A program made the translations under genes and the position numbers. The notes under the pieces are model-generated. The model saw only the letters and a list, made by a program, of their open reading frames with translations, ran no database searches and was not told the origin of the DNA. Below are positions 21,059 through 44,148 of a DNA stretch of 64,000 nucleotides, piece by piece. Positions within the stretch are counted from its first letter, which is position 1, and each line of letters starts with the position of its first letter. The stretch lies in the NCBI GenBank assembly GCA_963771465.1, contig CAVYTU010000015.1, forward strand, positions 768,001 to 832,000, written 5' to 3'. The DNA comes from an uncultured delta proteobacterium. Lineage in GTDB: Bacteria; Desulfobacterota; Binatia; UBA9968.

Positions 21059-27052
<5,994 letters not shown>

Positions 27053-27145
27053 GATTATTCTCCCGCAAAATTAACCACGCGGGTCGAATCTGCGGTTGGC
27101 AAACGATGAGCGGCCGTTAGCGTCAAGTATAATCGCTGGGGAAAT

Positions 27146-28027
27146 TTAGCTCGCCAAACCGACCGGCGCGGCGCTGTCGCCTTGGGCGACAGCGCGAATG
27201 GCGATTTCGGCGCCAAGCTCCGAAGTAACGGCGTTGCCGCGAAATGCGCCCGCCACCGGCGCCGCTAGCAATGGAGTTCCCGCCGCGGCCAACGCCACAT
27301 GGCGATCGGTGACCGCAACGCCCAGGCTCGGATCGTAACCGCGCCAGCCGGCGCCCGGTAAATACACTTCACTCCACGCTGCCAAGTACTGCAATTCGTT
27401 ATCCGCGCCGTTGATCCGATAGCCGCTGACATAGCGCGCGGCGATACCGACGTAGCGGCAGGCTTCGATGAAAAGCACGGCCATATCGCGGCAGGAGCCG
27501 CGTTTACGCAGGAGGGTATGCTCGGCGCCCAGTTGTCCACCGGGCTCGGGTCTAGTCTGCTGGCAGCACTCATAAATTTCCCGATTGAGCGCGCTCAGAA
27601 AACGCAGAGTCTTCCATTCGGTCTGGTTGGCGATTTGGCGCGCAAAGCGCTCGACCAAATCGCTATCGCCGAGCCGCGTGACATACGGCATCACGTAGGG
27701 CTTGATCAGGTCCATGTAACTGATCGGCAGCCGGTCAGCCCGGTCGGCGAGGATGTAGAGAAACGGGTTGCGGTATTGAGTGCATACCTTGGCCCGGCTC
27801 TCGATGACAAATCGCTCGGTGAGCCCCTCGAACCAAATATTCGAGACCACGTTGCCGTCAAGGTCTACGCTGTCCGAATATCCCGCCGGCCGTGGCTGGA
27901 CCTGCGAGTGGAAGTCGATCAAATTTTGCAAGCCATCGCAGCGCGGACGCACGCGCAGTTGATGCGGCTCCAGAAAAACCGGGCGGCTATAGGTATAAGT
28001 GGTTTTATGGCTGATTTCGAAATACAT
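27146..28027 (-). CDS. Transglutaminase-like protein (Bact_transglu_N + core)
   Basis: HKTTYTYSRPV, GSCRDMA, AARYVSGY, W.EVYLPGAGWRGYDP. Confidence 0.9.
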   Translation of the reverse strand: MYFEISHKTTYTYSRPVFLEPHQLRVRPRCDGLQNLIDFHSQVQPRPAGYSDSVDLDGNVVSNIWFEGLTERFVIESRAKVCTQYRNPFLYILADRADRLPISYMDLIKPYVMPYVTRLGDSDLVERFARQIANQTEWKTLRFLSALNREIYECCQQTRPEPGGQLGAEHTLLRKRGSCRDMAVLFIEACRYVGIAARYVSGYRINGADNELQYLAAWSEVYLPGAGWRGYDPSLGVAVTDRHVALAAAGTPLLAAPVAGAFRGNAVTSELGAEIAIRAVAQGDSAAPVGLAS

Positions 28028-28072
28028 AGGTAAAATTTCCTGCTTGTTGCGCGGAACCCGTTCCCCATCCGC

Positions 28073-29053
28073 TTATTGACCAACTCGATCCGGCGACCGC
28101 GATCCGACGGGCCGGAGCGCGAAAAAGGTGTCGTAAATACACTGATCGACGTGATTCAACTTGGTCTGAAACGCGTCGAGAAATTCATGCGGTCCGCGCG
28201 CGACAATCTGGCGCGTGTCGGTATACGCCAACTCGGCGCGCAACTGGCCAAGGCGCTGCTCGGCGGTATTACGAAACATTCCGATGGGCGTGCCTGAAAT
28301 CGCGTGCAGCGAATCATTGGCGCTCGTCAGGCAGTAGTGAATCGAGCGCGGAAACTCATGATCCAAGACGAGAAAATTGATAATCTGTTCAGGCGCGATG
28401 TGGCCGTGGCGCTTGCGATACATTTCCAAAGCGCTGGCCGACCGCAACACCGCGGCCCATTGAATATCGTCCAACGGCGTACCCACATCGCTAACTGACG
28501 GCAGCAGCATGAAGTATTTTACATCGAGCAACCTCGAGGTTTTATCGGCGCGTTCGAGCAAACGACCCAAACGATAGAAGTGCCAAACTTCGCCGTGCAA
28601 CATGGTGGCGTCGGTAATACCGTGAAACAGTTGGCTAGCCTTTTTGACGTCGCTAAAAAAACTCGAAGGCGACATCATCAGTCGCTGGTTCGAGGCCGCC
28701 GCGTTGACCATCAAATAACAGCTGTTGACCTGCTCCCACATCTCCGGCGAAATCGACTCGCGAATCGTCCGAGCATTCTCCCGCGCCGCGCGCAGGCAGG
28801 ACACGATCGAGTTTGGGTTTTCCCCGTCAAAGGTGAGAAACTTGATCACGTTGTCCCGCGACGCCACGGAAAAGTTCGACAAGAACACGTCGTCGTCGCC
28901 GGAGATGCTCACCAGCGGATGCCATTGCTCCCGCGAGCCAATCGGCAGATCGAGCATCATTTGCAGGTTGACGTCGATGAAACGCGCGACGTTGTCGGCC
29001 CGTTCCATGTATCGGCTCAACCAGTAAATCGAATTGGCGACTCGGCTTAGCAT
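28073..29053 (-). CDS. Alpha-E domain protein (DUF403)
   Basis: MLSRVANSIYWLSRYMERADNVAR, ARENARTIRE, LGRLLERADKTSR, FPRSI. Confidence 0.93.
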   Translation of the reverse strand: MLSRVANSIYWLSRYMERADNVARFIDVNLQMMLDLPIGSREQWHPLVSISGDDDVFLSNFSVASRDNVIKFLTFDGENPNSIVSCLRAARENARTIRESISPEMWEQVNSCYLMVNAAASNQRLMMSPSSFFSDVKKASQLFHGITDATMLHGEVWHFYRLGRLLERADKTSRLLDVKYFMLLPSVSDVGTPLDDIQWAAVLRSASALEMYRKRHGHIAPEQIINFLVLDHEFPRSIHYCLTSANDSLHAISGTPIGMFRNTAEQRLGQLRAELAYTDTRQIVARGPHEFLDAFQTKLNHVDQCIYDTFFALRPVGSRSPDRVGQ

Positions 29054-29089
29054 GATTGCGATTCTAGAAGTTCCTCGGTGGCGCGCCGT

Positions 29090-30523
29090 TCATGGCTGCA
29101 GTACCCAGGTGTCCTTGCTCCCTCCGCCCTGTGACGAGTTAACCACCAAGGAGCCCGGTTTGAGCGCGACCCGGGTCAATCCACCTGGCATCACGTAGAT
29201 GTCGCTGCCGTAGAGCACATAGGGACGCAGATCGACGTGACGGCCGACGACGCGGCCGTCGGCAATCACCGGCACCCGCGACAATCCCAAGGTCGGCTGG
29301 GCGATATAGTTGCGTGGATTCGCTTGAATGCGCCGGGCAAACTCAGCGCGTTCATCGACCGTCGCGTGCGGTCCCACCAGCATGCCGTAGCCGCCCGACT
29401 CGTTGACCGCCTTGACCACAAGTTGGTCCAAGCTCGCCACCACATAAGCTAGTTCCTTAGGCTCGGCGCAGACATAGGTCGGCACGTTGGGAATTAGGAT
29501 CTTCTCACCGAGATAGTACTCGATGATCTTCGGCACATAGGCGTAGATCGACTTGTCATCGGCGATGCCCGTCCCCGGAGCATTCGCCAACGCCACGCGC
29601 CCGCTCTTATAAATCTCCATGAGCCCCGGCACGCCGAGCAAGGAGTCCTCTCGAAACACTTGTGGGTCGAGAAAATCATCGTCGATACGCCGATACAGCA
29701 CATCGACGGGTTCAAATCCGTTGGTGGTGCGCATCATGATCCGGTTATTGACCGCTACCAGATCGCGCCCTTCGACCAATTCGACGCCCATTTGTTGCGC
29801 CAGAAATGAGTGTTCATAGTAAGCCGAATTGTAAATGCCCGGCGTCAGCAGCGCGACTTTGGGCGAGTCCATCGCCGCGGGAAAGAGTGACTGCAGCGTC
29901 GACAGCAGGCGACTGGGATACTCATCCACCGGCCTAACGTGCGACGCTTCGAAGACCTCGGGAAAGGTCCGCTTCATGATGCGGCGATTTTCCAGGACGT
30001 AAGAAACGCCTGAGGGACAGCGCAAATTATCCTCCAAGACATACATCTGGCCGTCGCGGTCGCGCACCAGATCGGTGCCGGTGATATGGCACCAGACCTC
30101 TTGCGGCGGATTGAGTCCGACGCATTCTTTGCGAAAAGAGCTCGCCGATTGGATCAGGTATTCAGGAACGACTTTGTCTTTGACGATTTTTTGCTCATGA
30201 TAAATATCGTCGACGAATAAATTGAGGGCGTAGACGCGTTGCTTCAAACCCTTTTCGAGCCAATCCCACTCGGCTGCTTCGACGATGCGCGGGATAACAT
30301 CGAATGGAAAAATTTTCTCGGTGGCCGCGCTATCGCTGTAAACGTTAAAGGTAATACCGTTCTGCAGCAGCAGGCTTTCAGCGGCAGCTTGGCGGGCGAG
30401 CAGCTCGCCGTCCGGCAGTGACTCGATCCGCTCTTTCAGCAAACGCGCGCCAGGCCGAGGAGTGCTGTCGGAGACAAACATCTCGTCATGAAAATCAGCC
30501 GTATCGTAATGGGCAAATTTCAT
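29090..30523 (-). CDS. Circularly permuted type 2 ATP-grasp protein
   Basis: GITFNVY, VLEDNLRCPSGVSY, LLTPGIYNSAYYEH, YRRIDDDFLDP, GGLTRVAL, VNSSQGGGSKDTWV; likely start MKFAHYD at 30523. Confidence 0.94.
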   Translation of the reverse strand: MKFAHYDTADFHDEMFVSDSTPRPGARLLKERIESLPDGELLARQAAAESLLLQNGITFNVYSDSAATEKIFPFDVIPRIVEAAEWDWLEKGLKQRVYALNLFVDDIYHEQKIVKDKVVPEYLIQSASSFRKECVGLNPPQEVWCHITGTDLVRDRDGQMYVLEDNLRCPSGVSYVLENRRIMKRTFPEVFEASHVRPVDEYPSRLLSTLQSLFPAAMDSPKVALLTPGIYNSAYYEHSFLAQQMGVELVEGRDLVAVNNRIMMRTTNGFEPVDVLYRRIDDDFLDPQVFREDSLLGVPGLMEIYKSGRVALANAPGTGIADDKSIYAYVPKIIEYYLGEKILIPNVPTYVCAEPKELAYVVASLDQLVVKAVNESGGYGMLVGPHATVDERAEFARRIQANPRNYIAQPTLGLSRVPVIADGRVVGRHVDLRPYVLYGSDIYVMPGGLTRVALKPGSLVVNSSQGGGSKDTWVLQP

Positions 30524-30597
30524 AGCCGATGCCGGCGCGAGCGCAAAGCCGCTGTAACCTCCGTAAGTTAACACAAACGCAGCGCCTTTTGTCCACC

Positions 30598-30612
30598 GCA
30601 ACGACCATGCCA
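30598..30612 (-). promoter_or_regulatory. Sigma54 (-24/-12) promoter of the ATP-grasp/alpha-E/transglutaminase operon
   Basis: Minus strand TGGCATGGTCGTTGC (GG-N10-GC), ~75 nt upstream of the ATG. Confidence 0.75.
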
Positions 30613-30661
30613 TGACAGCGCGCGAGATTTGCGTTGGTTAATTGCCTGCGTGTGCGGCGAA

Positions 30662-30701
30662 CGACTAATTTTTCGGCACTGGGCTGCCTGACCTTTGGTC
30701 A
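30662..30701. promoter_or_regulatory. Pair of NtrC-like enhancer boxes
   Basis: CGA-N11-GCA (30662-30678) and TGC-N11-TCA (30685-30701) between divergent sigma54 promoters. Confidence 0.4.
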
Positions 30702-30925
30702 GCAAGCGCCGCCGGCTAGTTGGACAATGAGTTATAAAAACCGCGCAATTGACATCTCAATCGAGCCGCCGGACGTCTCCTAATCGGGTGTGGAATCCTC
30801 TGTGACCAACTCTTACGCCGCTTTTTTAAGCGACCGCTGCTTAGTTTTTGGCATTCGCAGCGATCACTGGTGGTAACCGCCCTGCGAAACCCAGGGATAT
30901 TGAGGAAAATGGCGTCTCGTTATGC

Positions 30926-30941
30926 TGGTACGTTTTCTGCA
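30926..30941 (+). promoter_or_regulatory. Sigma54 promoter of the phosphorylase-glutaminase unit
   Basis: TGGTACGTTTTCTGCA (GG-N10-GC). Confidence 0.6.
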
Positions 30942-31084
30942 CAGGATTTTCTCCGCAGGTTTTGCGGGCTGATGGGTGTCACTAGTGATTTAGTAATCTG
31001 ATCAGGAAAACTTGCACAGCGGCCTCATTTCTCGAATGGACCAAAACGCCGCGTCAGTCAGCGCGCGCACACCGGTGAACGCAA

Positions 31085-32797
31085 ATGATGCCAAAAGAAA
31101 TCCGGCCCAACTATATCGCTTACTTTTCCATGGAAGTTGGCCTCGATTCGGCGATGCCGACATACAGCGGCGGGCTCGGTGTTCTCGCCGGCGACACATT
31201 GCGCGCCGCCGCCGATCTTAACCTGCCAATGATCGGCGTGACGCTCCTACACCGCAAGGGATATTTTCGCCAAACTCTCGACCGCAACGGCAATCAAACC
31301 GAGAGCCCAGTGGATTGGGACTACGAAGAAGCCTTGGAACCGATGGTGCCGCGCGCCTTCGTGCCTATCGCCGGAAGGGCGGTGGTGGTTCGTGCCTGGC
31401 GTTATGTCGTGCGCGGCGTCTTTGGTCATACGGTGCCGGTCTATTTCCTCGACAGCGGGTTGAAGGAAAACTCTCCCTGGGAACAAAGCTTGACTGCGGC
31501 GCTCTACGACGGCGACACGCGCCATCGTCTCTGTCAGGAAATCGTTTTGGGTATGGGCGGCGTAGCGATGCTCCAAGCCCTCGGCTACAAGAATGTTAGC
31601 ACGCACCATATGAATGAGGGCCACGCCGCGTTTTTAACCTTGGCCCTTTTGGAGCGCGAAGTGGCGCGCGGCGATTTGACCGCGGTGACGGAAACCGATA
31701 GCGAGGCGGTGCGCCAACGCAGCGTATTCACCACTCACACTCCGGTGCCGGCCGGTCATGACCAGTTTGCCGTCGACCTTGTGCGCGAGGTTTTAGGCGC
31801 CGAACGCTTGACCGCCTTGGAAAAGCTGCAGTGCATTGATAACGGCATGCTCAATATGACCTATCTGGCGCTGCATATGTCGCGTTATGTGAACGGCGTC
31901 GCCATGCGCCACGGCGAAATATCCCGCGACATGTTTCCCCATTATGCCATCGATTCGATCACCAATGGCGTGCATGCGCTCGACCTGGACCGCGGCGCCG
32001 TTTCGCAATCTGTACGACCGATTCATTCCCGAATGGCGGCGCGATAATTTCTATTTGCGCTATGCGATTAAAATCCCCCTCGCCGACGTGCAACGGGCTC
32101 ATGTGCTCGCCAAACGCGAAATGTTGGCCCAGATCGCCCAGCGGACGAAAGCGCATCTCGCTGAAAATGTCCTGACGATTTGTTTTGCCCGGCGCGCGGC
32201 CGGCTATAAGCGAGCCGATTTGTTGTTTACCGACCTTGAGCGGCTGCGATCGATCGCCGAGGAAGCCGGGCCATTTCAGGTTATCTATAGCGGTAAGGCG
32301 CACCCCCACGATGAAGCGGGAAAAGCGATGATCCGGCGCATTTTCGAATTTTCTGAAAAACTGAAAGGCGTGCTGCGCGTCGTCTACTTGGAAAATTATG
32401 ATATGGATCTGGCCCGCGCCCTCTGCGCCGGCGTCGATCTGTGGTTGAACACGCCTGAAAGACCTCTGGAAGCCTCCGGCACCAGCGGCATGAAGGCCGC
32501 GCTCAATGGCGTGCCGAGCCTCAGCGTTTTAGATGGTTGGTGGATCGAGGGCCACGTCGAGGGCGTGACCGGTTGGGCGATCGGCGCAAACGACGGCGGG
32601 CCAAACCGATACGCTGGCCGAGGCTAATTCGCTCTACGACAAATTGGAAGATGTCATTCTGCCGCTTATATTACGCCAAGCCGGAAGCCTACACAGAAAT
32701 CCGGCGCTCGGCGATCGCGTTGAACGGCTCGTTCTTTCACACCCAGCGCATGGTGCTGCAATACGTGCGCAACGCCTACAACGGTGTCGAACCCTGA
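31085..32797 (+). CDS. glgP: Alpha-glucan (glycogen) phosphorylase, short form; apparent frameshifts at ~31980, ~32610 and ~32665
   Basis: [52 protein letters not shown]-Lys motif [23 protein letters not shown]. Confidence 0.9.
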
Positions 32798-32846
32798 AAG
32801 GAGTCGACGATAGATCAGGATTCGACTCTAACGACATAAGCACCCG

Positions 32847-34712: not shown

Positions 34713-34803
34713 CCGCTCAGTTTTACCCAGGAATATTTTAGGGCTGGACTTCCGCGCCAATTCTAGCCCAACAGCAAACGATTAAGCGACTCTCGGTATT
34801 GCG

Positions 34804-36132: not shown

Positions 36133-36216
36133 CGCTCCCCTCATGAACAGCCGTTGCAAACCGGCGCAATCAACCTTGATGCCGTCACTCGATTCTAGGT
36201 TGTTGGAACTTTACGC

Positions 36217-36232
36217 GCAATGATTATGCCAG
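36217..36232 (-). promoter_or_regulatory. Sigma54 promoter of pfp
   Basis: Minus strand CTGGCATAATCATTGC (GG-N10-GC), ~85 nt upstream of the start. Confidence 0.75.
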
Positions 36233-36310
36233 TCTACGAGCCCAAACTTTCGGCCATCGTCGCATAACCGTTCTCGAACGGTGCGTCGCATGACTTGCGA
36301 ATAGCCGTAG

Positions 36311-36349
36311 TGCTACAAAAACATGCATTCTCTGATCGATTAATTGGCA
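36311..36349. promoter_or_regulatory. Pair of NtrC-like enhancer boxes
   Basis: TGC-TACAAAAACAT-GCA (36311-36327) and TGA-TCGATTAATTG-GCA (36333-36349), 22 bp apart. Confidence 0.45.
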
Positions 36350-36407
36350 CTTCCGATTCAGCGAAATGGATTCGCCATGAATCGGTTTTAAAAAGATAAT
36401 TCATCCG

Positions 36408-36423
36408 AGGAACAAATCTTGCT
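36408..36423 (+). promoter_or_regulatory. Sigma54 promoter candidate of the second peptide-ligase operon
   Basis: AGGAACAAATCTTGCT (GG-N10-GC with TTGC). Confidence 0.5.
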
Positions 36424-36535
36424 CCTATGCGCTTTGGCGCGAAGATTTTGCCGTCGCTACCATCGACGGTCGCCGCTTGATCCCGGTCGGCTCATCTTCT
36501 AGATTACATGTTCGTCCGTCGACACATTCGCTATC

Positions 36536-39500
36536 ATGTCCATCCACGTCGCGCTCCATCACGTTACCCACTACCGCTACGACCGTGTCATCAATCTTGG
36601 GCCGCAAGTTTTGCGCTTGCGGCCGGCGCCCCATTGCCGCACGCGCATCCTCAGTTATTCGCTCCAGGTTTTACCCAACGAGCACTTCATCAATTGGCAG
36701 CAAGATCCCCAGGCAAACTATTTAGCGCGCCTGGTTTTTAACCACCCGACGAACGAATTTCGCATCGGCGTCGATCTAGTCGCCGAGATGGCGGTGATCA
36801 ATCCATTCGATTTTTTTCTTGAGCCCCATGCCGAGCATTACCCCTTCGAATATGAGTCCTGGCAACGCAACGAGCTCGCGCCCTACTGCAAACGTGAACC
36901 GCTCACGCCGTTGTTTGAAAATTATTTGAATTCGGTGCCGCGGCAGAAATCCCGCAGCGTCGATTTTCTCGTTGGCTTGAACGCGCGATTGGCGCGCGAC
37001 ATCAAATATTTGATTCGTATGGAACCCGGCGTGCAAACGCCGGAGGAAACTCTCGCCAAGGGGTCGGGCTCGTGCCGCGATTCGGCGTGGCTGCTCGTGC
37101 AGCTGCTGCGCCATTTAGGATTGGCGGCGCGTTTTGTCTCCGGCTATTTGATCCAACTCACCGCCGATGTGAAATCCCTCGACGGGCCTGCCGGTCCGGC
37201 AAAAGATTTCACCGATCTGCACGCGTGGGCCGAAGTGTACTTGCCCGGCGCCGGTTGGATCGGTCTCGACGCGACGTCAGGATTGTTCGCCGGTGAAGGC
37301 CACTTGCCGCTCGCCTGCACGCCCGAGCCGGGATCGGCGTCTCCGGTAACCGGCCATGTTGACCCATGCCAAGTAGAATTTTCCCATGAAATGTCGATCA
37401 CCAGGATATGGGAAGCGCCGCGCGTCACCAAGCCCTACAGCGAGGAACAGTGGCAGGCCATCGATCGACTCGGTCAAGCCGTCGATATCGAGCTTAAGAA
37501 AAACGATGTCCGGCTAACTATGGGCGGCGAACCGACTTTTATCTCGATGGACGATTCCGAGGGCGAAGAGTGGACAACGGCAGCGCTCGGGCCAAACAAA
37601 CGACGGCTGGCAGCCGAGGTGTATCATCGCCTGCGCAGCCGCTACGGCGCTCACGGTCTGGTGCATTTTGGCCAGGGCAAATGGTATCCCGGCGAGCCGT
37701 TGCCACGCTGGTCGCTCAACTGCTTTTGGCGCGCCGACGGCGAGCCGATTTGGCGCGACCCAGCATTGATCGCCGACGAGGCTCAGCCCGGCAAGGTGAT
37801 GGCGACGACGGCTGAGGACTTTCTCCGCGCTGTCGCCCAACGGCTCGGCCTGGACCAACAACATATTTTCCCCGCCTACGAGGATCTGTTTTACTACCTA
37901 TGGCGCGAGCACCGCTTGCCGGCCAATGTCGATCCCTTCGACTCTCGGCTCGAAGATGCGCTCGAACGGCAACGGCTTATGCGTGTGCTGACTCAAGGGC
38001 TAAAACAAATCGTCGGTCACGCGCTGCCGGTGGCGCGCGACTTTGCGACCGGGCGATGGCGCAGCGGCGCTTGGTTTCTGCGCTCTGAGCATTGTTATCT
38101 GTTGCCCGGCGACTCGCCCATGGGCTACCGCCTGCCGCTCGACTCGCTGCCGTGGACCAGCGCCAACGACTACCCGGATATTTTTCCACCGGATCCAACC
38201 CAGCCGTTCCCGCCCCTTGCCACTCATGCGCAAATCCGTTTTCAGCTCGGCGCAGTGAAGTCCGCGGCTGGCGAAAGGCCTAGCGGCGGCGCGGAAAATC
38301 GCGGCCCAACCGAACGTGCGCCCGCCAAGCACGAGAGCGCGGCCTGGATTTCGCGCACGGCGCTCTGCGCCGAGCCGCGCCACGGGGTGTTGTACATTTT
38401 CATACCGCCGGTGAATTCGGTGGAAGATTATCTCGAGCTCGTTTCGGCCGTCGAAGCCAGCGCCGAAGCCTTGCGCCAGCCGATCATGTTGGAAGGCTAC
38501 GAGCCACCGCGCGACCCGCGGCTGGCCAATTTTCGCATCACCCCGGACCCGGGCGTGATCGAGGTAAATATTCATCCGTCGTCGAACTGGGATGAGCTGA
38601 GCGAGCGCACGACTTTCCTCTACGAAACGGCGCGCGCCTGTCGCTTGTCGACGGAAAAATTCATGCTCGACGGCCGCCACACCGGCACCGGCGGCGGCAA
38701 TCATTTCGCCCTCGGCGGCGCCACGCCGGCGGATTCGCCGTGGCTCCGGCGGCCGGATCTGTTGCGTAGTTTGTTGAGCTTCTGGCACAACCATCCGTCG
38801 CTGTCGTTTCTTTTCAGCGGGCTGTTTATCGGGCCGACTTCCCAGGCGCCGCGCATCGATGAAGCGCGTAGCGACTCCGTGCGCGAGCTCGAAGTGGCGT
38901 TTCGCGAGATGGAGCGGCGCGCGGACGCCAAGGATTGCCCGCCTTGGCTCATCGACCGGCTGCTGCGCAATTTGCTGATTGATGTCACCGGCAATACTCA
39001 TCGCGCCGAATTCTGCATCGACAAACTCTATTCGCCGGACAGCGCTACCGGACGTTTGGGGTTGTTAGAAATGCGCGCCTTCGAGATGCCGCCGCACGCG
39101 CGCATGAGTCTGACCCAACAGTTACTGATCCGCGCGCTGATCGCGCGTTTTTGGGAAACGCCCTACGCGCCGCCGCGTCTGGCGCGCTGGGGCACGGAAC
39201 TGCATGACCGTTTTCTGTTACCGCATTTTGTCTGGCTCGACTTCGAGGACGTGATCGCGGAATTGAATCAAGCCGGCTATAGCTTCGATCCAGCGTGGTT
39301 TGCGCCGCACTTTGAATTTCGTTTTCCTAAATACGGCGACTTCGCCGCGCGTGGCATCGAAATGGAACTGCGCGCCGCCCTTGAGCCGTGGCATGTGCTC
39401 GGTGAAGAAGGCGCCGCCGGCGGCACCGCGCGCTACGTCGACTCCTCGTTGGAAAGAATTCAAGTCAAAGTCATCGGACTACCGCCGGATCGCTACGCGA

Positions 39501-39862
39501 TCACCTGCAACGAAGTAGCGCTGCCGCTACGATCGACCGGCACCGTCGGCGAATTCGTCGCCGCCGTGCGCTATCGCGCCTGGCAGCCGCCTTCGGCCTT
39601 GCATCCCACCATCGGCGTGCACACGCCGCTAACTTTTGATATCGTCGACCGCTGGATAAAGCGCAGCCTCGGCGGCTGCCAATACCACGTCATGCACCCC
39701 GGCGGCCGCAGCTATGAGGTCTTTCCCGTCAACGCCTTCGAAGCCGAGAGCCGTCGACTCGAACGGTTTTCCCGCATCGGTCACACGCCGGGGATTATGG
39801 AAATCGACGAGGCGCGCATCGACCCGGAGTTTCCCTTCACCCTCGATTTGCGTAAAATCTAG
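36536..39862 (+). CDS. Transglutaminase + putative amidoligase (DUF2126) fusion
   Basis: HHVTHYRYDR, GSCRDSAWL, DFTDLHAWAEVY, LTMGGEPTF, TPDPGVIEVN, HTGTGGGNH, EMRAFEMPPH, FPFTLDLR. Confidence 0.93.
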   Translation: MSIHVALHHVTHYRYDRVINLGPQVLRLRPAPHCRTRILSYSLQVLPNEHFINWQQDPQANYLARLVFNHPTNEFRIGVDLVAEMAVINPFDFFLEPHAEHYPFEYESWQRNELAPYCKREPLTPLFENYLNSVPRQKSRSVDFLVGLNARLARDIKYLIRMEPGVQTPEETLAKGSGSCRDSAWLLVQLLRHLGLAARFVSGYLIQLTADVKSLDGPAGPAKDFTDLHAWAEVYLPGAGWIGLDATSGLFAGEGHLPLACTPEPGSASPVTGHVDPCQVEFSHEMSITRIWEAPRVTKPYSEEQWQAIDRLGQAVDIELKKNDVRLTMGGEPTFISMDDSEGEEWTTAALGPNKRRLAAEVYHRLRSRYGAHGLVHFGQGKWYPGEPLPRWSLNCFWRADGEPIWRDPALIADEAQPGKVMATTAEDFLRAVAQRLGLDQQHIFPAYEDLFYYLWREHRLPANVDPFDSRLEDALERQRLMRVLTQGLKQIVGHALPVARDFATGRWRSGAWFLRSEHCYLLPGDSPMGYRLPLDSLPWTSANDYPDIFPPDPTQPFPPLATHAQIRFQLGAVKSAAGERPSGGAENRGPTERAPAKHESAAWISRTALCAEPRHGVLYIFIPPVNSVEDYLELVSAVEASAEALRQPIMLEGYEPPRDPRLANFRITPDPGVIEVNIHPSSNWDELSERTTFLYETARACRLSTEKFMLDGRHTGTGGGNHFALGGATPADSPWLRRPDLLRSLLSFWHNHPSLSFLFSGLFIGPTSQAPRIDEARSDSVRELEVAFREMERRADAKDCPPWLIDRLLRNLLIDVTGNTHRAEFCIDKLYSPDSATGRLGLLEMRAFEMPPHARMSLTQQLLIRALIARFWETPYAPPRLARWGTELHDRFLLPHFVWLDFEDVIAELNQAGYSFDPAWFAPHFEFRFPKYGDFAARGIEMELRAALEPWHVLGEEGAAGGTARYVDSSLERIQVKVIGLPPDRYAITCNEVALPLRSTGTVGEFVAAVRYRAWQPPSALHPTIGVHTPLTFDIVDRWIKRSLGGCQYHVMHPGGRSYEVFPVNAFEAESRRLERFSRIGHTPGIMEIDEARIDPEFPFTLDLRKI

Positions 39863-39961
39863 GGCGACCGCCGGGTCACTCCTACCTTCGCATGGCAAGA
39901 GCAACGGAGACCGTGCAGCGCGAGGATTATCGATCGAAACTCTAAAGCAACATTTTGGCCC

Positions 39962-42475
39962 ATGGCCCGTTCAAAAGCGTTAATGAATTATCTTCCCACG
40001 CCCGATCGTTACGACGAAGTTTTCGATCCTCAGGGACGCCCACGGGTGCATTGGGCGCGCTTGGCCCAAGCGGCGCGGCGCGCCAGCCGCACGGCGTTGT
40101 CGCGCCGCGCCGGGACGATTCGCCGTGCCGTCGAGCAGGATGGCGTGACCTACAACATTTACGGCGATCCCAAGGGAACCGACCGCCCTTGGGAAGTCGA
40201 TTTATTGCCGTTGGTGATTGCGACGGAGGAATGGCAATTTCTCGCCAAAGCCGTCGAACAGCGCGCGCGCCTGATGGATCGCCTGCTCGCCGACCTCTAC
40301 GGCGCCAATCGCCTGCTCGCCGAAGGGTTGATCCCGCCGGCGATCATTCACGGTCATCACAATTATTTATGGCCCTGCCGCGGCATCGAGCCGCCGGGCG
40401 GAACCTTCCTGCATCTCTATGCCTGCGATCTCGCCCGCTCGCCCGATGGCCGCTGGTGGGTGATCGGCGATCGCACCCAAGGTCCTTCGGGGGCGGGTTA
40501 CGCGGTACAAAACCGGCTCATCGTGACGCCCCTGTACGAAAACATTTTTCGCTCTCTCGGGGTGCAAAGATTGGCGAATTTTTTCCGCACCCTGCAACAG
40601 CAGCTTGCCGCGCTCGCGCCCACCGATGGCGAAGCGCCGCTGGTCGCCCTGCTGACGCCGGGGCCGTACAACGAAACCTATTTCGAGCATGTTTTTCTCG
40701 CCCGCTATCTGGGTTACCCGCTGGTCGAAGGATCGGACCTGACGGTGCGCGACAATCGCGTCTATCTGAAAACCTTGCAAGGTTTGAAGCGCGTGCACGC
40801 GCTGGTGCGCCGTTTGGACGACGAATACTGCGATCCAGCCGCGTTGCGCACCGATTCGACCCTCGGTGTCGCCGGCTTGATCTCGGCGGCGCGCGCCGGC
40901 AACGTGCTGCTTGCCAATGCCCTGGGCTCCGGCGTGCTGGAGTCGCCGGCGCTACTCGGCTTCTTGCCGGCCATTTGCGAGCGGATGCTCGGCGAGCCTC
41001 TGGCGTTGCCGTCGGTGGCGACCTGGTGGTGCGGCGAAGCGCCGGCGCTCAAGCATGCGATCGACCGACTTCCCGAACTGGTCATCAAACCGGCCTTCGC
41101 TTCGATGAAACTCGAACCGACTTTCGGCCATAATTTAGATAGCGCCGGGCGCGCAGCGCTGGCGGAACGAATGCGCGCGACGCCCCACGCCTTTGTCGCT
41201 CAGGAATGGGTGCGCTTGTCTCAGGCGCCCACCTGGTCGAACGAGACCCAGCAGTTCGAACCACGGGTCGTCGGCTTGCGGCTTTATGCGACCGCCAACG
41301 GCAACGGCTACGACGTCATGCCCGGTGGGCTCGCCCGCGTCGCTCCCGAGTCGGCCATCGAAGTCATCACCATGCAACGGGGCGGATCAAGCAAAGATGT
41401 TTGGGTGCTAGGCGCCGGCGCGACGCCGTGGCAATCGCTGCTGGTGCCGCGCCTCGGCGCCCGCAATCTCGTGCGCGGCGGGTTCTATTCGCCGTCGCGC
41501 GCGGTGGAAAATCTGTTCTGGATGGGGCGCTACGCCGAGCGCATCGAAAATATCGGACGCTTGTTGCGGGCCGTCGGTCAACGCCTTACCGAAAGCGATC
41601 CGGCGCATTTGCCAACGCTCAAGGTGCTGACCCTGTTATCGGATAAAGCGCGCTTGCGCGAGCCGGTCGCCAACGGCAACGCACCGCCGCCGGCGAAGAA
41701 AAAACTGCCGCTCAACGTTGGCCCGGAGTGGGTGCTAGCGGCGGTGGGCGACCCGAAGGTTCAAAATGGCATTCCCGCCAACACCGGCCGGCTGCTGTTC
41801 TGCGCCACCCAACTTCGAGAGCGCATGTCGCTCGATCATTGGCGCACTGTGCAACGGCTCGCCCATGCGCACGAGCCGGTGGCGCAAAGTCTGGAGGCAG
41901 CGTTGACCGTTCTCGATCGCGTGATTCCCGTTGCCACGGCGCTCGCCGGCTACGCCTTTGACGATATGACCCGGGATGACGCCTGGCTCTTCCTCGTCAT
42001 GGGGCGACAGTTGGAGCGCATGGCGTTTTTGAGCTCGGCGGCGACCCATGTGCTCGGGCTGCCGGACGAAGATTGCGACGCCGTGCTGGGGGCGTTATTG
42101 GAAATCGGCAACGTCAGCATGACCTATCGGGCGCGCTACCAGCGTCACCCCGAACTGCTGCCGGTTCTCGACCTCTTGGTGCTCGACGAGCAGAATCCGC
42201 ACTCGGTCTGTTTTCAGCTGGCGGCGCTCTACAACCATCTGAAACAAGTCTGGGCGCGGCTGGAATTTCGGCCGGTCAATGATCCGGCCTCGCTGTTGCA
42301 GGCGCTCAGAGGATTCGATGTCGCCGAATTGGAAAATCTGCGCATGCGCCAAGGCGAACCTCTCGCCGCGCTTTTGGCGGCTTGTGAACGCTGCGCCTAC
42401 GGACTCTCCGACGAGCTCACCCATCGCTTTTTCATCCACGCCGGCGAACGCCCACAGACGAACGTAGCAGCATGA
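39962..42475 (+). CDS. Circularly permuted ATP-grasp + alpha-E fusion protein
   Basis: GVTYNIY, DRTQGPSGAGY, LLTPGPYNETYFEH, GGSSKDVWV, then PSRAVENLFWMGRYAER, DMTRDDAW..GRQLER. Confidence 0.93.
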   Translation: MARSKALMNYLPTPDRYDEVFDPQGRPRVHWARLAQAARRASRTALSRRAGTIRRAVEQDGVTYNIYGDPKGTDRPWEVDLLPLVIATEEWQFLAKAVEQRARLMDRLLADLYGANRLLAEGLIPPAIIHGHHNYLWPCRGIEPPGGTFLHLYACDLARSPDGRWWVIGDRTQGPSGAGYAVQNRLIVTPLYENIFRSLGVQRLANFFRTLQQQLAALAPTDGEAPLVALLTPGPYNETYFEHVFLARYLGYPLVEGSDLTVRDNRVYLKTLQGLKRVHALVRRLDDEYCDPAALRTDSTLGVAGLISAARAGNVLLANALGSGVLESPALLGFLPAICERMLGEPLALPSVATWWCGEAPALKHAIDRLPELVIKPAFASMKLEPTFGHNLDSAGRAALAERMRATPHAFVAQEWVRLSQAPTWSNETQQFEPRVVGLRLYATANGNGYDVMPGGLARVAPESAIEVITMQRGGSSKDVWVLGAGATPWQSLLVPRLGARNLVRGGFYSPSRAVENLFWMGRYAERIENIGRLLRAVGQRLTESDPAHLPTLKVLTLLSDKARLREPVANGNAPPPAKKKLPLNVGPEWVLAAVGDPKVQNGIPANTGRLLFCATQLRERMSLDHWRTVQRLAHAHEPVAQSLEAALTVLDRVIPVATALAGYAFDDMTRDDAWLFLVMGRQLERMAFLSSAATHVLGLPDEDCDAVLGALLEIGNVSMTYRARYQRHPELLPVLDLLVLDEQNPHSVCFQLAALYNHLKQVWARLEFRPVNDPASLLQALRGFDVAELENLRMRQGEPLAALLAACERCAYGLSDELTHRFFIHAGERPQTNVAA

Positions 42476-43374
42476 GTCAAAACGGCGCGCGCCATTATCG
42501 GGTCGAACACTACACCGCGTACCGTTACTCGGAGCCAGTGATGCTATCGCATCAGCAGCTTCATCTGACGCCGCGGCCGCTGGACTACCAACCGATCCAA
42601 GACCATGAAGTGGCCATCAAACCGACGCCGACGCAACAGCGCAAAATGATCGACGCCTTCGGCAATCCAGTGACCGAGATCGCCATCGAAGCGGCGCACA
42701 CCACCTTGGATATCATCGCCCGAACGACCGTGGCGGTGGCGCAACGGCCGCTGATCGATCCAGCACAAACGCCTGCCTGGGAATCCGTTCGCGACGGCCT
42801 TGCCTACCGCGCCGGCTGGCATCCCGAGCCAGCGATGCTCGATGCCACGCACTTTCTGTTCGAATCCCCTTACGTGCGAGTGAAACGTACTCTTAGAGCC
42901 TATGCCGGCGATTGTTTTGAACCGGGCCGGCCGATACTGGAAGTGGCGACAGCGCTGATGGCGAAAATTCACGGCGAGTTTAAATTCGATGCGGCAGCGA
43001 CCAACGTCACCACGCCGGTGATGGAATTTTTCGAGCAGAAGCGCGGCGTGTGCCAGGACTTTACCCATTTGATGATCTCGTGCTTGCGTTCGAGCGGCTT
43101 GGCAGCGCGTTACGTGAGCGGCTATTTGCTCACGCGCCCGGCCCCCGGCAAGCCACCTCGCGCCGGCGCCGACGTGTCCCACGCGTGGGTATCACTATTT
43201 GTCCCTGGAAATGGCTGGATCGACTTCGACCCGACCAACAATGTTGTGCCATCGTGGGAGCATATCACCCTCGCATGGGGCCGCGACTTCTCCGACGTGA
43301 CGCCTTTGCGCGGTATCATCAACGGCGGCGGCGAGCAAACTCTGGAGGTCAAGGTGGCCGTCGAACCGCTCTAG
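42472..43374 (+). CDS. Transglutaminase-like protein
   Basis: GVCQDFTH, ARYVSGY, DVSHAWV, WIDFDPTN, WGRDFSDV; ATGA overlap with the upstream gene. Confidence 0.93.
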   Translation: MSQNGARHYRVEHYTAYRYSEPVMLSHQQLHLTPRPLDYQPIQDHEVAIKPTPTQQRKMIDAFGNPVTEIAIEAAHTTLDIIARTTVAVAQRPLIDPAQTPAWESVRDGLAYRAGWHPEPAMLDATHFLFESPYVRVKRTLRAYAGDCFEPGRPILEVATALMAKIHGEFKFDAAATNVTTPVMEFFEQKRGVCQDFTHLMISCLRSSGLAARYVSGYLLTRPAPGKPPRAGADVSHAWVSLFVPGNGWIDFDPTNNVVPSWEHITLAWGRDFSDVTPLRGIINGGGEQTLEVKVAVEPL

Positions 43375-43419
43375 CAACTCATTGCGCCCTCGTTGCGCTC
43401 TCTACAGTGTGACCCCGCT

Positions 43420-44148
43420 CTACTGGGTCAGCGTCAGCAGAACATCGGCATACCAGGCGCAGTTGAGATCCAAGCGCTCGTCCTGAGCGACATCGCGGTC
43501 GGCCAAGTCCATGCGCGCCGAGTGCACGCCCAAGAGCATCCAGGCGAGTTCGCCGCGACCGGAACGCTCGGTCGTCATACGCGCGACGACGGGCGCACCG
43601 CTGGTACCGCGGTGCATTCTGGCGTCGGTCAAAAAATAGCCTTGGCCTTGGAAACGAATACCGAACGCGGAAGCGATTACCGCCTGGCGCGCCACCGGCA
43701 AGTGATGCAAGTTGTCATGAAACCCCAAGGGAAAACCGACGATCAGCACCGGCGTTCCCACTTCGACTTGATCCAATTCGGCGACCAGATGAGCCGGCGT
43801 AAAGGCTGACAGAACGATCGCCTCGGGCAATGCTGGTCGTTGAATCTCCACGGCGGCGACGTCGACGCTGCCGCCGGAGTCGACACTCTGGCGCCAAAGT
43901 GGTTGGTTTCCGCCGTACAGCGGCATCGACCACTGACACACCGCAGCTACGTTGTTGGAATCCATGTGCAGCTCGACGTCGAGCCGGTCCGGCCGGTGAT
44001 TGCTCGCCTCATCCAATACGACATGACGGCTGGTCACTAAAAATAACCGGTCATCGCGTTGGAAGAAAAAACCGGTGGCGCCGGTCAACGGCTTATCACC
44101 CAACATCGTCGAGACTCGGGTTACCGCCAACAGCAATGATTCGATCAA
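43420..44148 (-). CDS. Trypsin-like serine peptidase without signal peptide
   Basis: ATGFFF, LVTSRHV (His), VDVAAV (Asp), IVGFPLG, HRGTSGAPV (Ser); TTG start at 44148 with AGGAG RBS. Confidence 0.85.
   Translation of the reverse strand: MIESLLLAVTRVSTMLGDKPLTGATGFFFQRDDRLFLVTSRHVVLDEASNHRPDRLDVELHMDSNNVAAVCQWSMPLYGGNQPLWRQSVDSGGSVDVAAVEIQRPALPEAIVLSAFTPAHLVAELDQVEVGTPVLIVGFPLGFHDNLHHLPVARQAVIASAFGIRFQGQGYFLTDARMHRGTSGAPVVARMTTERSGRGELAWMLLGVHSARMDLADRDVAQDERLDLNCAWYADVLLTLTQ

Follow-up and report, generated by a model that had tools for sequence, protein, structure and literature searches.

Why two operons for predicted peptide ligases, pointing away from each other, should enclose genes for glucan breakdown, glutamine hydrolysis and glycolysis, and whether these units answer to one signal, are the questions raised by a block of genes from an uncultured delta proteobacterium. 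The block lies in what we call the window, the whole stretch of 64,000 nucleotides of contig CAVYTU010000015.1 that was analysed. The host is a soil bacterium.

Architecture of the block

Matches to Pfam and NCBIfam profiles, on which all gene identities rest, confirm the gene architecture of the original prediction. Operon 1 (CP-ATP-grasp, Alpha-E, transglutaminase) and operon 2 (transglutaminase-DUF2126, ATP-grasp-Alpha-E, transglutaminase) both face outward, and between them lie an alpha-glucan phosphorylase, a glutaminase-STAS-cNMP protein and a PPi-phosphofructokinase. The genes are as follows.

27146..28027, minus strand: TG1, transglutaminase-like, last gene of operon 1 (Pfam Bact_transglu_N 74.8 bits, Transglut_core 65 bits)
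28073..29053, minus strand: Alpha-E, middle gene of operon 1 (Pfam Alpha-E 348 bits, full profile covered)
29090..30523, minus strand: AG1, circularly permuted ATP-grasp ligase, first gene of operon 1 (Pfam CP_ATPgrasp_2 560.4 bits)
31085..32797, plus strand: glgP, alpha-glucan family phosphorylase, short type, about 569 aa (Pfam matches on fragments)
32847..34712, plus strand: glsA, glutaminase A with STAS and cNMP-binding domains (Pfam Glutaminase 397.7, STAS 34.8, cNMP_binding 61.6 bits)
34804..36159, minus strand: pfp, PPi-dependent phosphofructokinase, convergent with glsA (NF041103 567.6 bits, cut-off 550)
36536..39862, plus strand: transglutaminase fused to DUF2126 putative amidoligase, first gene of operon 2 (Pfam DUF2126 1353.8 bits, plus transglutaminase domains)
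39962..42475, plus strand: CP-ATP-grasp fused to Alpha-E, second gene of operon 2 (Pfam CP_ATPgrasp_2 501.7, Alpha-E 191.5 bits)
42472..43374, plus strand: TG2, transglutaminase-like, last gene of operon 2 (Pfam 84.3 and 77.8 bits)
43420..44256, minus strand: trypsin-like peptidase, convergent with TG2 (Pfam Trypsin_2 45 bits)

Together, the two operons are predicted to encode three ATP-dependent amide-bond ligase modules and three papain-like transglutaminase/peptidase modules. AG1 scores 554.6 bits against PDB 3n6x; its longest open reading frame extends to 30613 and overlaps the operon 1 promoter, but the ATG at 30523 is the likely start, since the alignments of relatives begin there and tblastn matches run from residue 27-31. 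When TG1, TG2 and the N-terminal part of the DUF2126 protein are aligned, Cys, His and Asp are all present in the latter two, whereas TG1 retains the catalytic Cys and Asp but has Ala at the aligned catalytic His. The DUF2126 protein has counterparts with 54-83% identity in 80 loci from many phyla, and TG2 overlaps the preceding gene by 4 nt. The trypsin-like peptidase adjoins TG2 in six sister loci (78-83% identity), a neighbourhood conserved in the genus; a frame-shift may affect its N-terminal part at position 44168 of the window, where runs X1 and X16 have one base fewer.

In the window, one extra base at each of three places (near 31979, 32595 and 32664) breaks the glgP reading frame into three; these bases are absent from contigs of four public short-read runs wherever these cover the positions (4/4, 3/3 and 3/3, respectively). 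Without the three bases the reading frame encodes 569 aa, 86.6% identical to a sister ortholog; a score of 534 bits on TIGR02094 was obtained for a sister ortholog. The glutaminase, the sole copy in the genome, scores 352.6 bits on TIGR03814 (cut-off 255.4). Given that only about 50 nt separate the end of glgP from the start of glsA, and that no -24/-12 site was found upstream of glsA, the two genes are probably co-transcribed. The pfp gene is the only PFK-family gene found in the genome (one PF00365 match, with which tblastn agrees).

Promoters of the four units

A GG-N10-GC sigma54 promoter had originally been assigned to each of the four units. All four motifs exist, and three of them are conserved; the one upstream of the DUF2126 gene is weak.

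30597..30612, minus strand: sigma54-type promoter of operon 1, TGGCAT-N5-TTGC, TGGCATGGTCGTTGCG (16.5 bits, genome matrix)
30926..30941, plus strand: sigma54-type promoter of glgP-glsA, TGGTAC-N5-CTGCA, TGGTACGTTTTCTGCA (8.2 bits; weak score, conserved)
36216..36231, minus strand: sigma54-type promoter of pfp, TGGCAT-N5-TTGC, TGGCATAATCATTGCG (17.2 bits)
36408..36423, plus strand: weak GG-N10-GC motif upstream of DUF2126, AGGAAC-N5-TTGCT, AGGAACAAATCTTGCT (9.6 bits, chance level)

On the matrix derived from the genome, which loosened across iterations from 217 to 425 training sites and whose bit values are only relative, the operon 1 and pfp sites are strong, with 162 genome positions reaching 16 bits. 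By score, the glgP and DUF2126 motifs are at chance level, since 7486 genome positions reach at least 8 bits and about 0.9 such matches would be expected in the two spacers that separate the divergent units. The strict motif TGGCA[CT]-N5-TTGC is fitted by the operon 1 and pfp sites; 76 of its 119 genome matches fall in the 13% of the genome called intergenic, an approximately five-fold enrichment.

Conservation was counted among genomes of the same genus, which are kin and so do not give independent counts. In operon 1, TGGCAT and TTGC are invariant around a variable spacer in 10/10 genomes examined; the glgP promoter, as TGGTA[CT]-N5-[CG]TGC, is conserved in 5/5 amid otherwise diverged sequence; and the pfp promoter is conserved in 6/6, one of which has just a pfp remnant. 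The DUF2126 motif is present in only 3/12 genomes, those with a long spacer between pfp and DUF2126. Of the two chance-level motifs, the glgP site alone is rescued by conservation. Rather than a sigma54 promoter, the DUF2126 operon has a conserved promoter that looks sigma70-like.

36477..36505, plus strand: sigma70-like promoter of operon 2, TTGATC-N17-TAGATT (kept in 12/12 genus genomes)

This element ends 31 nt upstream of the DUF2126 ATG, and the remaining spacer is unalignable among the 12 genomes. Because it matches only 8/12 consensus letters, it was not listed by a simple promoter scan.

NtrC-like dyads and candidate regulators

As a reference for nitrogen control we used the genome's own ammonium-uptake operon, amtB-glnA-glnK, the promoter of which scores 18.2 bits. 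Of 17 amtB loci scanned, five without a promoter of at least 14 bits were left out of the dyad analysis; in all 12 remaining genus loci two 17-mers lie 2 nt apart. The resulting dyad matrix, built from 17 distinct amtB dyads (16 from sister genomes and the second amtB site of the window genome), has low information and an A/T-rich centre. Operon 1 and pfp, and glgP more weakly, have upstream tandem TGC-N11-GCA dyads of the kind and spacing found before amtB-glnA-glnK.

30646..30701, no strand: predicted upstream activator region of operon 1, NtrC-like 17-mers at 30662-30678 and 30685-30701, third TGC-N11-GCG at 30646-30662
30816..30850, no strand: conserved block upstream of the glgP promoter, dyad-like 17-mer at 30816-30832
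36311..36349, no strand: two NtrC-like dyads in tandem, flanked by the pfp promoter and the weak motif on the DUF2126 side (11.2 and 9.4 bits)

The operon 1 17-mers score 14.8 and 12.0 bits on the amtB-dyad matrix, and dyad positions -66/-69, -89/-92 and -47 recur across 10 genomes. At glgP the dyad-like 17-mer scores 9.6 bits in the window and 10.9 in genome G014; a second dyad at -88 reaches 14.0 bits in G003 and 11.6 in G004 but only 1.6 in the window. The pfp dyads are kept at -96/-98 and -118/-120 in 4/6 genomes, being missing in G017 and G012, and may serve as a two-way enhancer.

In the two spacers (847 bp) there are five dyad matches of at least 9.4 bits, compared with about 0.12 expected from the intergenic background of 130 matches in 906,671 positions. 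Tandem pairs, defined as two sites of at least 9 bits each and 17-30 nt apart, number only seven in the genome (6.9 Mb). Six are intergenic, each no more than 260 nt from a sigma54 site of at least 16.4 bits, and these precede the amtB operon, a porin, P-II, an NMT1-type binding protein, the ATP-grasp operon and pfp. Dyads of the amtB type are also found before a nitrite/sulfite-reductase-like gene and transport genes of the same genome. Only 10/179 strong intergenic sigma54 sites carry an upstream dyad of at least 11 bits, so sigma54 promoters of this genome do not generally have one. From the amtB-like dyads and the conserved -24/-12 promoters, we infer control by nitrogen limitation.

The genome encodes RpoN and has 35 matches to the sigma54-activator domain PF00158, about two dozen of them full-length. 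The best NtrC-like protein, with REC, AAA and HTH_8 domains, reaches 539.7 bits on TIGR01818, below the curated cut-off of 558.6. Another of the two dozen or so activators, with a similar site, could be responsible instead of this candidate.

The interval in related genomes

Conserved linkage of glgP, glsA and pfp had been expected from the first description of the locus. The trio is not fixed: within the genus the segment between the operons ranges from empty to one containing glgP, glsA, P-II, GS-III, two GAPDH genes and pfp. Among nine genomes with a contiguous interval, it is empty in two, and the following occur in one genome each: a glgP remnant only, glgP alone, pfp alone, and GAPDH with a pfp remnant. 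Beyond the genus such linkage is rare. Carbon or nitrogen neighbours near DUF2126 were found in 0/4 other DUF2126-bearing genomes of the phylum sample. Among the 80 loci from many phyla, a phosphorylase is nearby in three, and a glutaminase, a weak PFK-like match and GS-III in one each. Outside the genus, a phosphorylase is near in only 2/79 loci compared with about 0.6 expected from a rough, self-estimated rate of two such genes per genome. As for the frame itself, CP-ATP-grasp-Alpha-E follows DUF2126 in 62/80 loci, and TG2 is present in 61/80.

The carbon and nitrogen theme, on the other hand, proved stronger than at first sight. Wherever the interval is filled in genus genomes, it holds genes of central carbon or nitrogen metabolism only; in sister genomes these include two GAPDH genes, PEP carboxylase, a GAF-fused phosphorylase, type III GS and P-II, the last with a 19.9-bit sigma54 site.

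Discussion

In the reading that we favour, and consider probable on the basis of the sequence comparisons, the block is an island of a nitrogen-stress regulon served by sigma54 RNA polymerase and an NtrC-type enhancer-binding protein. The paired outward operons, which co-occur in many phyla, would be its fixed frame, between which the genus would keep a changeable set of carbon and nitrogen genes, here glgP-glsA as one unit and pfp as another. Nitrogen limitation would place phosphorylated activator on the dyads, and the operon 1, glgP and pfp promoters would fire together. Operon 2 would run from its conserved sigma70-like promoter; any extra sigma54 boost in the three species with the motif may come via the dyads common with pfp. 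The ligase operons would be linked to the metabolic genes by regulation, through the same signal, and not by an obligate shared pathway. The likeness of the promoter and enhancer motifs of most units to those of the genome's own ammonium-uptake operon speaks for shared nitrogen-starvation control, not for shared chemistry. Making and trimming an amide-linked peptide or tag, for nitrogen scavenging or protein turnover, is the most likely role of the ligase/peptidase set. Of the co-regulated carbon/nitrogen module first proposed, then, the regulatory link is supported in silico for three of the four units; for the DUF2126 unit, with its sigma70-like conserved promoter, it is weaker.

A true metabolic module, in which turnover of a Glu/Gln-based peptide, polymer or tag, made or recycled by the ligases and transglutaminases, is chemically coupled to glutaminase (as a source of Glu and NH4+) and to glycogen breakdown via phosphorylase and the ATP-sparing PPi-PFK, seems to us unlikely. 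The exclusively central-metabolic content of filled intervals would fit it, as would the finding that, in three lineages, a phosphorylase of one of two types immediately precedes a ligase operon: G014, L068 (labelled Terriglobia) and L032 (labelled Planctomycetaceae), the last with a 15.0-bit sigma54-like site about 120 nt upstream. GS-III lies near DUF2126 in locus L035 and glutaminase follows TG2 in L019; the cNMP-binding domain of the glutaminase could sense carbon status; and, pfp being the only PFK, its nitrogen-type promoter puts glycolytic flux under the same signal. However, there is no obligatory partner: G020 and G024 have nothing in the interval, and G003, G023 and G018 have remnants only; the phylum sample and the 79 loci outside the genus point the same way; the sequences identify the substrate of no ligase; and a glutaminase induced beside GS would create a futile cycle unless tightly gated.

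Less likely again is that the promoters are of the sigma54 type but different activators control the units in response to different signals, such as carbon or energy starvation, cyclic nucleotides or stress, so that the interval is a permissive gap with gene turnover and not part of one regulon. The many activator domains, the differences in interval content from species to species, the weak glgP upstream sites in the window and the distinct operon 2 promoter would all be compatible with this. Against it, two of the only six intergenic tandem pairs belong to the block, the remaining four standing before genes recognisable as ones for nitrogen assimilation or transport, and dyads are rare at strong sigma54 sites. 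That the GG-N10-GC motifs are chance matches, with the block transcribed from ordinary promoters, we regard as very improbable. The bare pattern is common (a crude consensus scan gave 19 sites with two or fewer mismatches in the window) and the scores of two motifs out of four are no better than chance, but two fit the intergenically enriched strict pattern, in three the -24 and -12 letters are conserved in 5 to 10 genomes amid diverging surroundings, and each lies on the correct strand, 60-160 nt upstream of its own gene.

Comparison with known systems

Classical NtrC/sigma54 promoters, for example enteric glnAp2, combine a -24/-12 element with tandem 17-bp dyads, TGC...GCA, 50-120 nt upstream. 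This layout matches that before the amtB-glnA-glnK operon of this genome. Here, however, the inner letters of the half-sites depart from the enteric consensus, just 2-6 nt separate the two sites, and the targets include the genome's only PFK and a glycogen phosphorylase. In cyanobacteria, nitrogen starvation induces sugar-catabolic genes (glgP, pfk, gap) via a group-2 sigma factor and a response regulator, not sigma54. The logic is the same, with glycogen and glycolysis genes tied to a nitrogen signal, but the regulators are different and no linkage to ligase/transglutaminase operons is known there.

In Burkholderia cenocepacia H111, the available part of one report describes a transglutaminase-like cluster including a 'large protein', I35_5080-83, as sigma54- and NtrC-dependent under nitrogen limitation, and in that part mentions no glycogen or glycolysis genes for the cluster (PMC5491218). 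It resembles operon 2 by this partial description, the homology being taken from names alone. In contrast, the conserved promoter of operon 2 in our genus is sigma70-like (12/12), with the -24/-12 motif in 3/12. The closest parallel to operon 1 is the Anbu-type operon of Pseudomonas putida, PP_2685-2688 (CP-ATP-grasp, Alpha-E, transglutaminase, Anbu), which, in the portions of the sources available, is one of the genetic units most strongly induced under nitrogen limitation and is listed as ntrB/ntrC-regulated (PMC3235984, PMC6376114, PMC7801951, PMC3325844), and the function of which is there stated to be still unknown (PMC6376114). Its first three genes correspond in kind and order to those of operon 1. 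Operon 1 differs in being without an Anbu gene, the genome's only proteasome-family match lying on another contig, in the Ala at the aligned catalytic His of TG1, and in being paired with a DUF2126 operon and with genes of carbon and nitrogen metabolism.

Gene content of the block

ORF map and family scans (Pfam, NCBIfam) bear out the gene list of the original prediction, in which two outward-pointing ligase operons bracket a glucan phosphorylase, a glutaminase and a PPi-dependent phosphofructokinase.

Genes of the block (window coordinates)
27146-28027, minus strand: TG1, transglutaminase-like with bacterial N-domain, operon 1 (Pfam 74.8/65 bits)
28073-29053, minus strand: Alpha-E protein, operon 1 (Pfam 348 bits)
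29090-30613 (longest ORF), minus strand: CP-ATP-grasp ligase, operon 1 (Pfam 560.4 bits)
31085-32797, plus strand: alpha-glucan family phosphorylase (glgP); two paralogs elsewhere in the genome
32847-34712, plus strand: glutaminase A (glsA) with C-terminal STAS and cNMP-binding domains (TIGR03814, 352.6 against a cut-off of 255.4); single-copy
34804-36159, minus strand: PPi-dependent phosphofructokinase (pfp; NF041103, 567.6 against a cut-off of 550)
36536-39862, plus strand: transglutaminase fused to DUF2126, operon 2 (1353.8 bits), with DUF2126 behind the transglutaminase domain
39962-42475, plus strand: ATP-grasp-Alpha-E fusion, operon 2 (family scan)
42472-43374, plus strand: TG2, second transglutaminase, operon 2 (family scan)
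43420-44256, converging on operon 2: trypsin-like peptidase, in the same place in six sister loci

Operon 1 consists of three adjoining co-directional genes spaced 36 and 45 nt apart (ORF map and Pfam). The sigma54 motif and the 5' end of the longest ORF of its CP-ATP-grasp gene overlap; since the alignments of relatives begin at residue 27-31 (tblastn), the true start is probably the ATG at 30523. Given that ATP-grasp and Alpha-E are fused in operon 2, we argue that their unfused counterparts in operon 1 also cooperate. The ligase side as a whole is predicted to combine three modules for ATP-dependent amide formation, two of the ATP-grasp and one of the DUF2126 family, with three transglutaminase modules of papain-like type. 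In a three-sequence alignment, Cys, His and Asp are all present in TG2 and in the N-terminal portion of the DUF2126 protein, and TG1 has the Cys and Asp with Ala at the aligned catalytic His. TG1 is the least conserved gene of the block: its identity to the sister genomes is 62-65%, whereas its two operon partners reach 79-93%. A PDB search found no solved structure for the DUF2126 protein, and the ATP-grasp protein matches 3n6x, an uncharacterised structural-genomics entry.

Among the metabolic genes, pfp is the only PFK-family gene found in the genome (6.9 Mb, 99% complete). A gap of about 50 nt with no promoter motif separates glgP from glsA, which suggests a single transcript. A repeat search of 30400-36600 found no flanking repeats marking a mobile element, and an Rfam scan of the whole window gave no matches. 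GlgC, the glucose-1-phosphate adenylyltransferase of glycogen synthesis, is encoded 18 kb downstream of the block (62279-63574), with no strong sigma54 site before its gene.

The reading frame of the phosphorylase gene

The phosphorylase gene of the window is spread over three frames, with single extra bases near 31979, 32595 and 32664; a sister ortholog reaches 534.1 on TIGR02094 (cut-off 191.7). We aligned to the block Logan contigs from four studies, covering three runs of DNA and one of an RNA library. Each extra base is absent wherever a run covers its place (4/4, 3/3 and 3/3 runs), and without the three bases the gene is an open frame of 569 aa that is 86.6% identical over its full length to a sister ortholog. 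A decaying pseudogene was considered and rejected, because the extra bases are missing from all covering runs and the gene reads through without them. Most likely, the frame breaks are consensus errors, given the runs that lack the extra bases and the other split genes in the assembly. A less likely alternative is a strain-specific allele, which we retain because about 16 substitutions relative to the window, at 31476-32592, are common to all four runs. These substitutions are confined to the phosphorylase gene, its flanks being nearly identical, and could represent a local consensus mix or a recombined allele. On this preferred reading of consensus errors, the frame of glgP would be broken in this assembly only.

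Split genes elsewhere in the assembly include a GrdB-like gene (window 8900-9942), a long multi-GAF histidine kinase (21059-27120) and three sigma54-activator genes (contig C5, ~30400-31641; contig C17, ~491019-491796 and 820605-821788), which suggests a general indel problem in this consensus. In the trypsin-like gene, runs X1 and X16 leave out one base at 44168. A contig of run X6 that joins 30383 to 34958 was considered as a variant without glgP-glsA and rejected as too short, having a 22-letter side and 21 foreign letters between. Contigs of the RNA-library run (X16) cover 24 of 30 bins and one extends past the predicted pfp start, although such contigs show neither transcription, starts nor levels. 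Within the DUF2126 gene, at 38106-39339, each of the three DNA runs shows a jump in summed contig depth, from about 7 to values of 44-71, and loose contig ends are numerous at ~38655-38710; this part of the gene is seemingly at least 95% identical in many other soil organisms.

Predicted sigma54 promoters

The genome encodes RpoN (214 bits in a profile search) and has 35 matches to PF00158, of which about two dozen are activator domains of full length. Genome-wide, the strict pattern TGGCA[CT]-N5-TTGC has 119 matches, 76 of these in the 13% that is intergenic by a crude gene call, and this enrichment argues that the pattern marks real promoters in this genome. The original prediction had placed a GG-N10-GC motif, of the -24/-12 sigma54 type, before each of four units, and motif scans found all four in place.

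Sigma54-type motifs of the block (bit values are only relative, as the genome-derived matrix loosened over iterations)
30597-30612, minus strand: ATP-grasp operon promoter, strict TGGCA[CT]-N5-TTGC, 16.5 bits
30926, plus strand: glgP motif, TGGTAC-N5-CTGCA, 8.2 bits, chance level by score
36216-36231, minus strand: pfp promoter, strict TGGCA[CT]-N5-TTGC, 17.2 bits
36408, plus strand: DUF2126 motif, AGGAAC-N5-TTGCT, 9.6 bits, chance level by score

On this matrix, no more than 162 positions genome-wide score 16 bits or higher, so that the scan singles out the ATP-grasp and pfp promoters and leaves the other two at chance level. Conservation in same-genus genomes speaks for glgP as well: the ATP-grasp motif is kept in 10/10 genomes examined, with a varying spacer, and the glgP and pfp motifs in 5/5 and 6/6, each amid diverged sequence. 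The motif before DUF2126 is present in 3/12, all three with a long pfp-DUF2126 spacer. Instead, all 12 have TTGA(T/C/A)C-N17-TA(G/A/C)AT(T/G) before DUF2126, ending about 30 nt from the start codon (36477-36505 in the window), a sigma70-like promoter that differs among genomes only at positions that are also loose in sigma70 promoters. A simple sigma70 and terminator scan gave counts at shuffle level and did not list the conserved TTGATC-N17-TAGATT. Reading the 36408 motif as an ECF-type -35 (GGAAC) was rejected, as the three genomes show no conserved -10 after it, and TTGCT is conserved. Of four predicted sigma54 promoters, those of the ATP-grasp operon, glgP and pfp are thus supported by conservation, whereas that of DUF2126 is doubtful and the promoter conserved before operon 2 is of another kind.

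Upstream of the trypsin-like peptidase lies a 183-aa ORF without family matches (44527-45078), with a sigma54-like site of 15.2 bits at its start (45071-45092, minus strand); the matching place in the sister locus G004 has no sigma54 site of 11.5 bits or more.

Putative enhancer dyads and a candidate activator

The amtB-glnA-glnK operon of this genome (contig C14, 652707-656033) has a sigma54 promoter of 18.2 bits. Seventeen genus loci were scanned for the amtB promoter, and the 12 with a promoter of at least 14 bits were analysed, the other five being left out. Each of the 12 has a pair of 17-mers with the pattern TGC-N11-GCA, putative NtrC-like activator sites, 2 nt apart and about 105 nt upstream. 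The dyad matrix was built from 17 distinct amtB dyads, 16 from sister genomes and one being the window genome's own second amtB site.

Putative activator dyads in the spacers of the block
30662-30678: ATP-grasp side, 14.8 bits
30685-30701: ATP-grasp side, 12.0 bits
30816-30832: glgP side, 9.6 bits; a second glgP site is weaker (1.6 bits)
36311-36327: pfp side, 11.2 bits
36333-36349: pfp side, 9.4 bits

Five matches of at least 9.4 bits fall in the block's two spacers (847 bp), against about 0.12 expected from the intergenic background (130 such matches in 906,671 positions). The dyads coincide with blocks conserved among sister genomes and hold their distance from the -24 element: those of the ATP-grasp operon lie at -47, -66/-69 and -89/-92 in 10 genomes, and those of pfp at -96/-98 and -118/-120 in 4/6, being missing in G017 and G012. 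Genome-wide, there are seven tandem pairs (both dyads at least 9 bits, 17-30 nt apart), and the six that are intergenic all have a sigma54 site of at least 16.4 bits within 260 nt. These six belong to the amtB operon, an OmpL-like porin, a P-II gene, an NMT1-type binding protein, the ATP-grasp operon and pfp; at a nitrite/sulfite-reductase-like gene, two dyad sites occur with a slightly wider spacing. Such dyads are not a general companion of sigma54 promoters, as only 10 of 179 strong intergenic sigma54 sites have one of at least 11 bits upstream. Judged by their dyads, the ATP-grasp operon and pfp would be grouped with the core nitrogen-assimilation genes in one small class. In silico, then, three units have conserved predicted sigma54 promoters, and two of them, and more weakly a third, putative amtB-type dyads.

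The best NtrC-like protein, encoded on contig C2 (100018-101418), falls just short of the equivalog cut-off (539.7 bits against 558.6), and its architecture of REC, AAA and HTH_8 fits NtrC; given the score, the name of the activator is our inference. The dyads at 36311-36349 have the pfp promoter on one side and the weak DUF2126 motif on the other, at similar distances, an arrangement that would suit an enhancer acting both ways in the three species with the DUF2126 motif. The same tandem dyads accompany a second cluster of sigma54 promoters on contig C15 (~402000-418400), about 380 kb from the window; the cluster includes the OmpL-like porin, the nitrite/sulfite-reductase-like gene, which has a Rieske domain, and the P-II gene, and looks like a nitrogen-assimilation island.

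Linkage within and beyond the genus

Both ligase operons are constant across the genus, and what changes is the content of the interval between them. The interval is contiguous in nine genomes, the window included, and partial, on short contigs, in three more.

Content of the interval between operons 1 and 2 in same-genus genomes
G020 and G024: empty
G003: 5' remnant of glgP and its promoter only
G004: glgP alone
G017: pfp alone
G018: GAPDH gene and pfp remnant
Window: glgP-glsA and pfp
G022: glgP, glsA, P-II (own sigma54 site, 19.9 bits), glutamine synthetase type III (GS-III), two GAPDH, pfp
G014: PEP carboxylase (C-terminal part read), 889-aa GAF-fused phosphorylase, phosphoketolase fragment, glgP, glsA, two GAPDH, pfp
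G012 (partial): pfp adjoining DUF2126
G002 (partial): glgP-glsA
G023 (partial): glgP fragment

A fixed glgP/glsA/pfp linkage was not found, as the gene set varies and two intervals are empty, but wherever the interval is filled, all its annotated genes in the genus genomes examined belong to glycogen metabolism, glycolysis, anaplerosis or nitrogen assimilation. Because these genomes are kin, the observations are not independent.

Ligase/transglutaminase/DUF2126 systems are very widespread, with more than 655 relatives, and we compared the best 80 DUF2126 loci of these, from many phyla. Operon 2 is nearly universal among these 80, the ATP-grasp-Alpha-E fusion being found in 62/80 and TG2 in 61/80 in the same order, and an operon-1-type ATP-grasp gene is present in 35/80 (26/45 among loci of at least 20 kb). 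A phosphorylase is a neighbour in 3/80: L055, which at 83% identity is the closest locus among the matches listed, and L032 and L068, in which a GAF-fused phosphorylase immediately precedes a ligase operon. About 120 nt before the phosphorylase of L032 is a sigma54-like site of 15.0 bits. The other carbon/nitrogen neighbours among the 80 are one glutaminase (L019), one weak PFK-like match (L080) and one GS-III (L035), the last with an 18.2-bit site before it. The GAF-fused phosphorylase of G014 (L097:891-3560) is 78% identical to one in a Terriglobia record, against 59% for the neighbouring DUF2126 proteins. Comparison of L097 with L068 and L032 hints that the phosphorylase, perhaps with the ATP-grasp operon, was transferred between phyla.

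Within the organism's own phylum, DUF2126 exceeds the cut-off in 5/301 sampled genomes, too few for statistics, and the other four loci of this sample have no carbon/nitrogen neighbours. The G+C content of operon 2 is 0.605-0.634, against 0.577 for the whole window and 0.54-0.567 for the genome contigs. This composition, together with the rarity in the phylum, suggests that the ligase genes may have been acquired and later wired into the host nitrogen regulon.

Proposed function and comparison with known systems

Based on the promoters and dyads, we propose the following model. Under nitrogen limitation, an NtrC-type activator would switch on operon 1, and the same activator would switch on glgP-glsA and pfp. 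Operon 2 would be transcribed by default from its sigma70-like promoter, with an added activator boost in some species. The original prediction of a co-regulated carbon/nitrogen module holds for the predicted regulation and for the carbon/nitrogen theme of the interval, but goes beyond the evidence in coupling the metabolism. PPi-dependent phosphofructokinase works in both directions, and glycogen storage is common in bacteria short of nitrogen; glycogen mobilisation is therefore only one possibility, and carbon may flow in either direction.

A bolder reading, which we consider improbable, is that the two-operon ligase system is a reserve-management switch by which, under nitrogen starvation, an amide-linked nitrogen product would be built or remodelled, or proteins tagged, in coordination with glycogen mobilisation. 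If so, the glucan phosphorylase would be a genuine functional partner of the ligase operons. Such a partnership would explain why, in at least three lineages, phosphorylases of two unrelated subtypes came to lie directly before these operons, and why the only PFK, GAPDH, PEP carboxylase, GS-III and P-II occur in one sigma54/NtrC-wired interval. The block offers a regulatory map and a contextual hint on an old puzzle, and does not reveal the chemistry. It narrows the search for function to carbon/nitrogen balance and supplies concrete putative binding sites and promoters, in a genus that is uncultured and known from metagenome assemblies only.

In the original prediction, the physical and regulatory link to carbon storage is not known to be described. 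We found no paper tying these operons to glycogen genes in the main texts searched, an earlier mention in Iyer et al. 2009 or Hervas et al. 2008 being possible. Likewise, in these main texts, we found neither glycogen, glycolysis and glutamine genes embedded between the two operons nor an amtB-type enhancer before a PFK and a phosphorylase. No mention of DUF2126 by name was found in the papers searched, and a search by COG numbers gave nothing relevant beyond the 2008 Anbu paper. In a Caulobacter NtrC preprint, the only mention is of an unrelated transglutaminase homolog. Three features were not found in the papers searched: a genus whose ligase operons enclose glycogen, glycolysis and glutamine genes in a set that changes, an enhancer motif common to these units and amtB-glnA-glnK, and a nitrogen-type promoter before the organism's only phosphofructokinase.

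Nitrogen-limitation control of ligase/transglutaminase clusters is already in print. An Anbu-type operon is among the genes most induced in nitrogen-limited P. putida (PMC3235984, PMC5666114, PMC6376114, PMC7801951, PMC3325844), and a transglutaminase-like cluster of B. cenocepacia is sigma54- and NtrC-dependent (PMC5491218). The ATP-grasp protein of a Yersinia Anbu operon is reported to release phosphate from ATP, and according to PMC6376114 none of the hypotheses on the operon's role has been confirmed. Operon 1 lacks Anbu, a proteasome beta-like protein, as its fourth gene and has a convergent histidine kinase after TG1 instead; the one genome-wide match to PF00227 in a profile search lies on contig C11. 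Without an Anbu gene, operon 1 is not a full Anbu operon, but it shares with the Anbu-type operon the CP-ATP-grasp, Alpha-E and transglutaminase genes.
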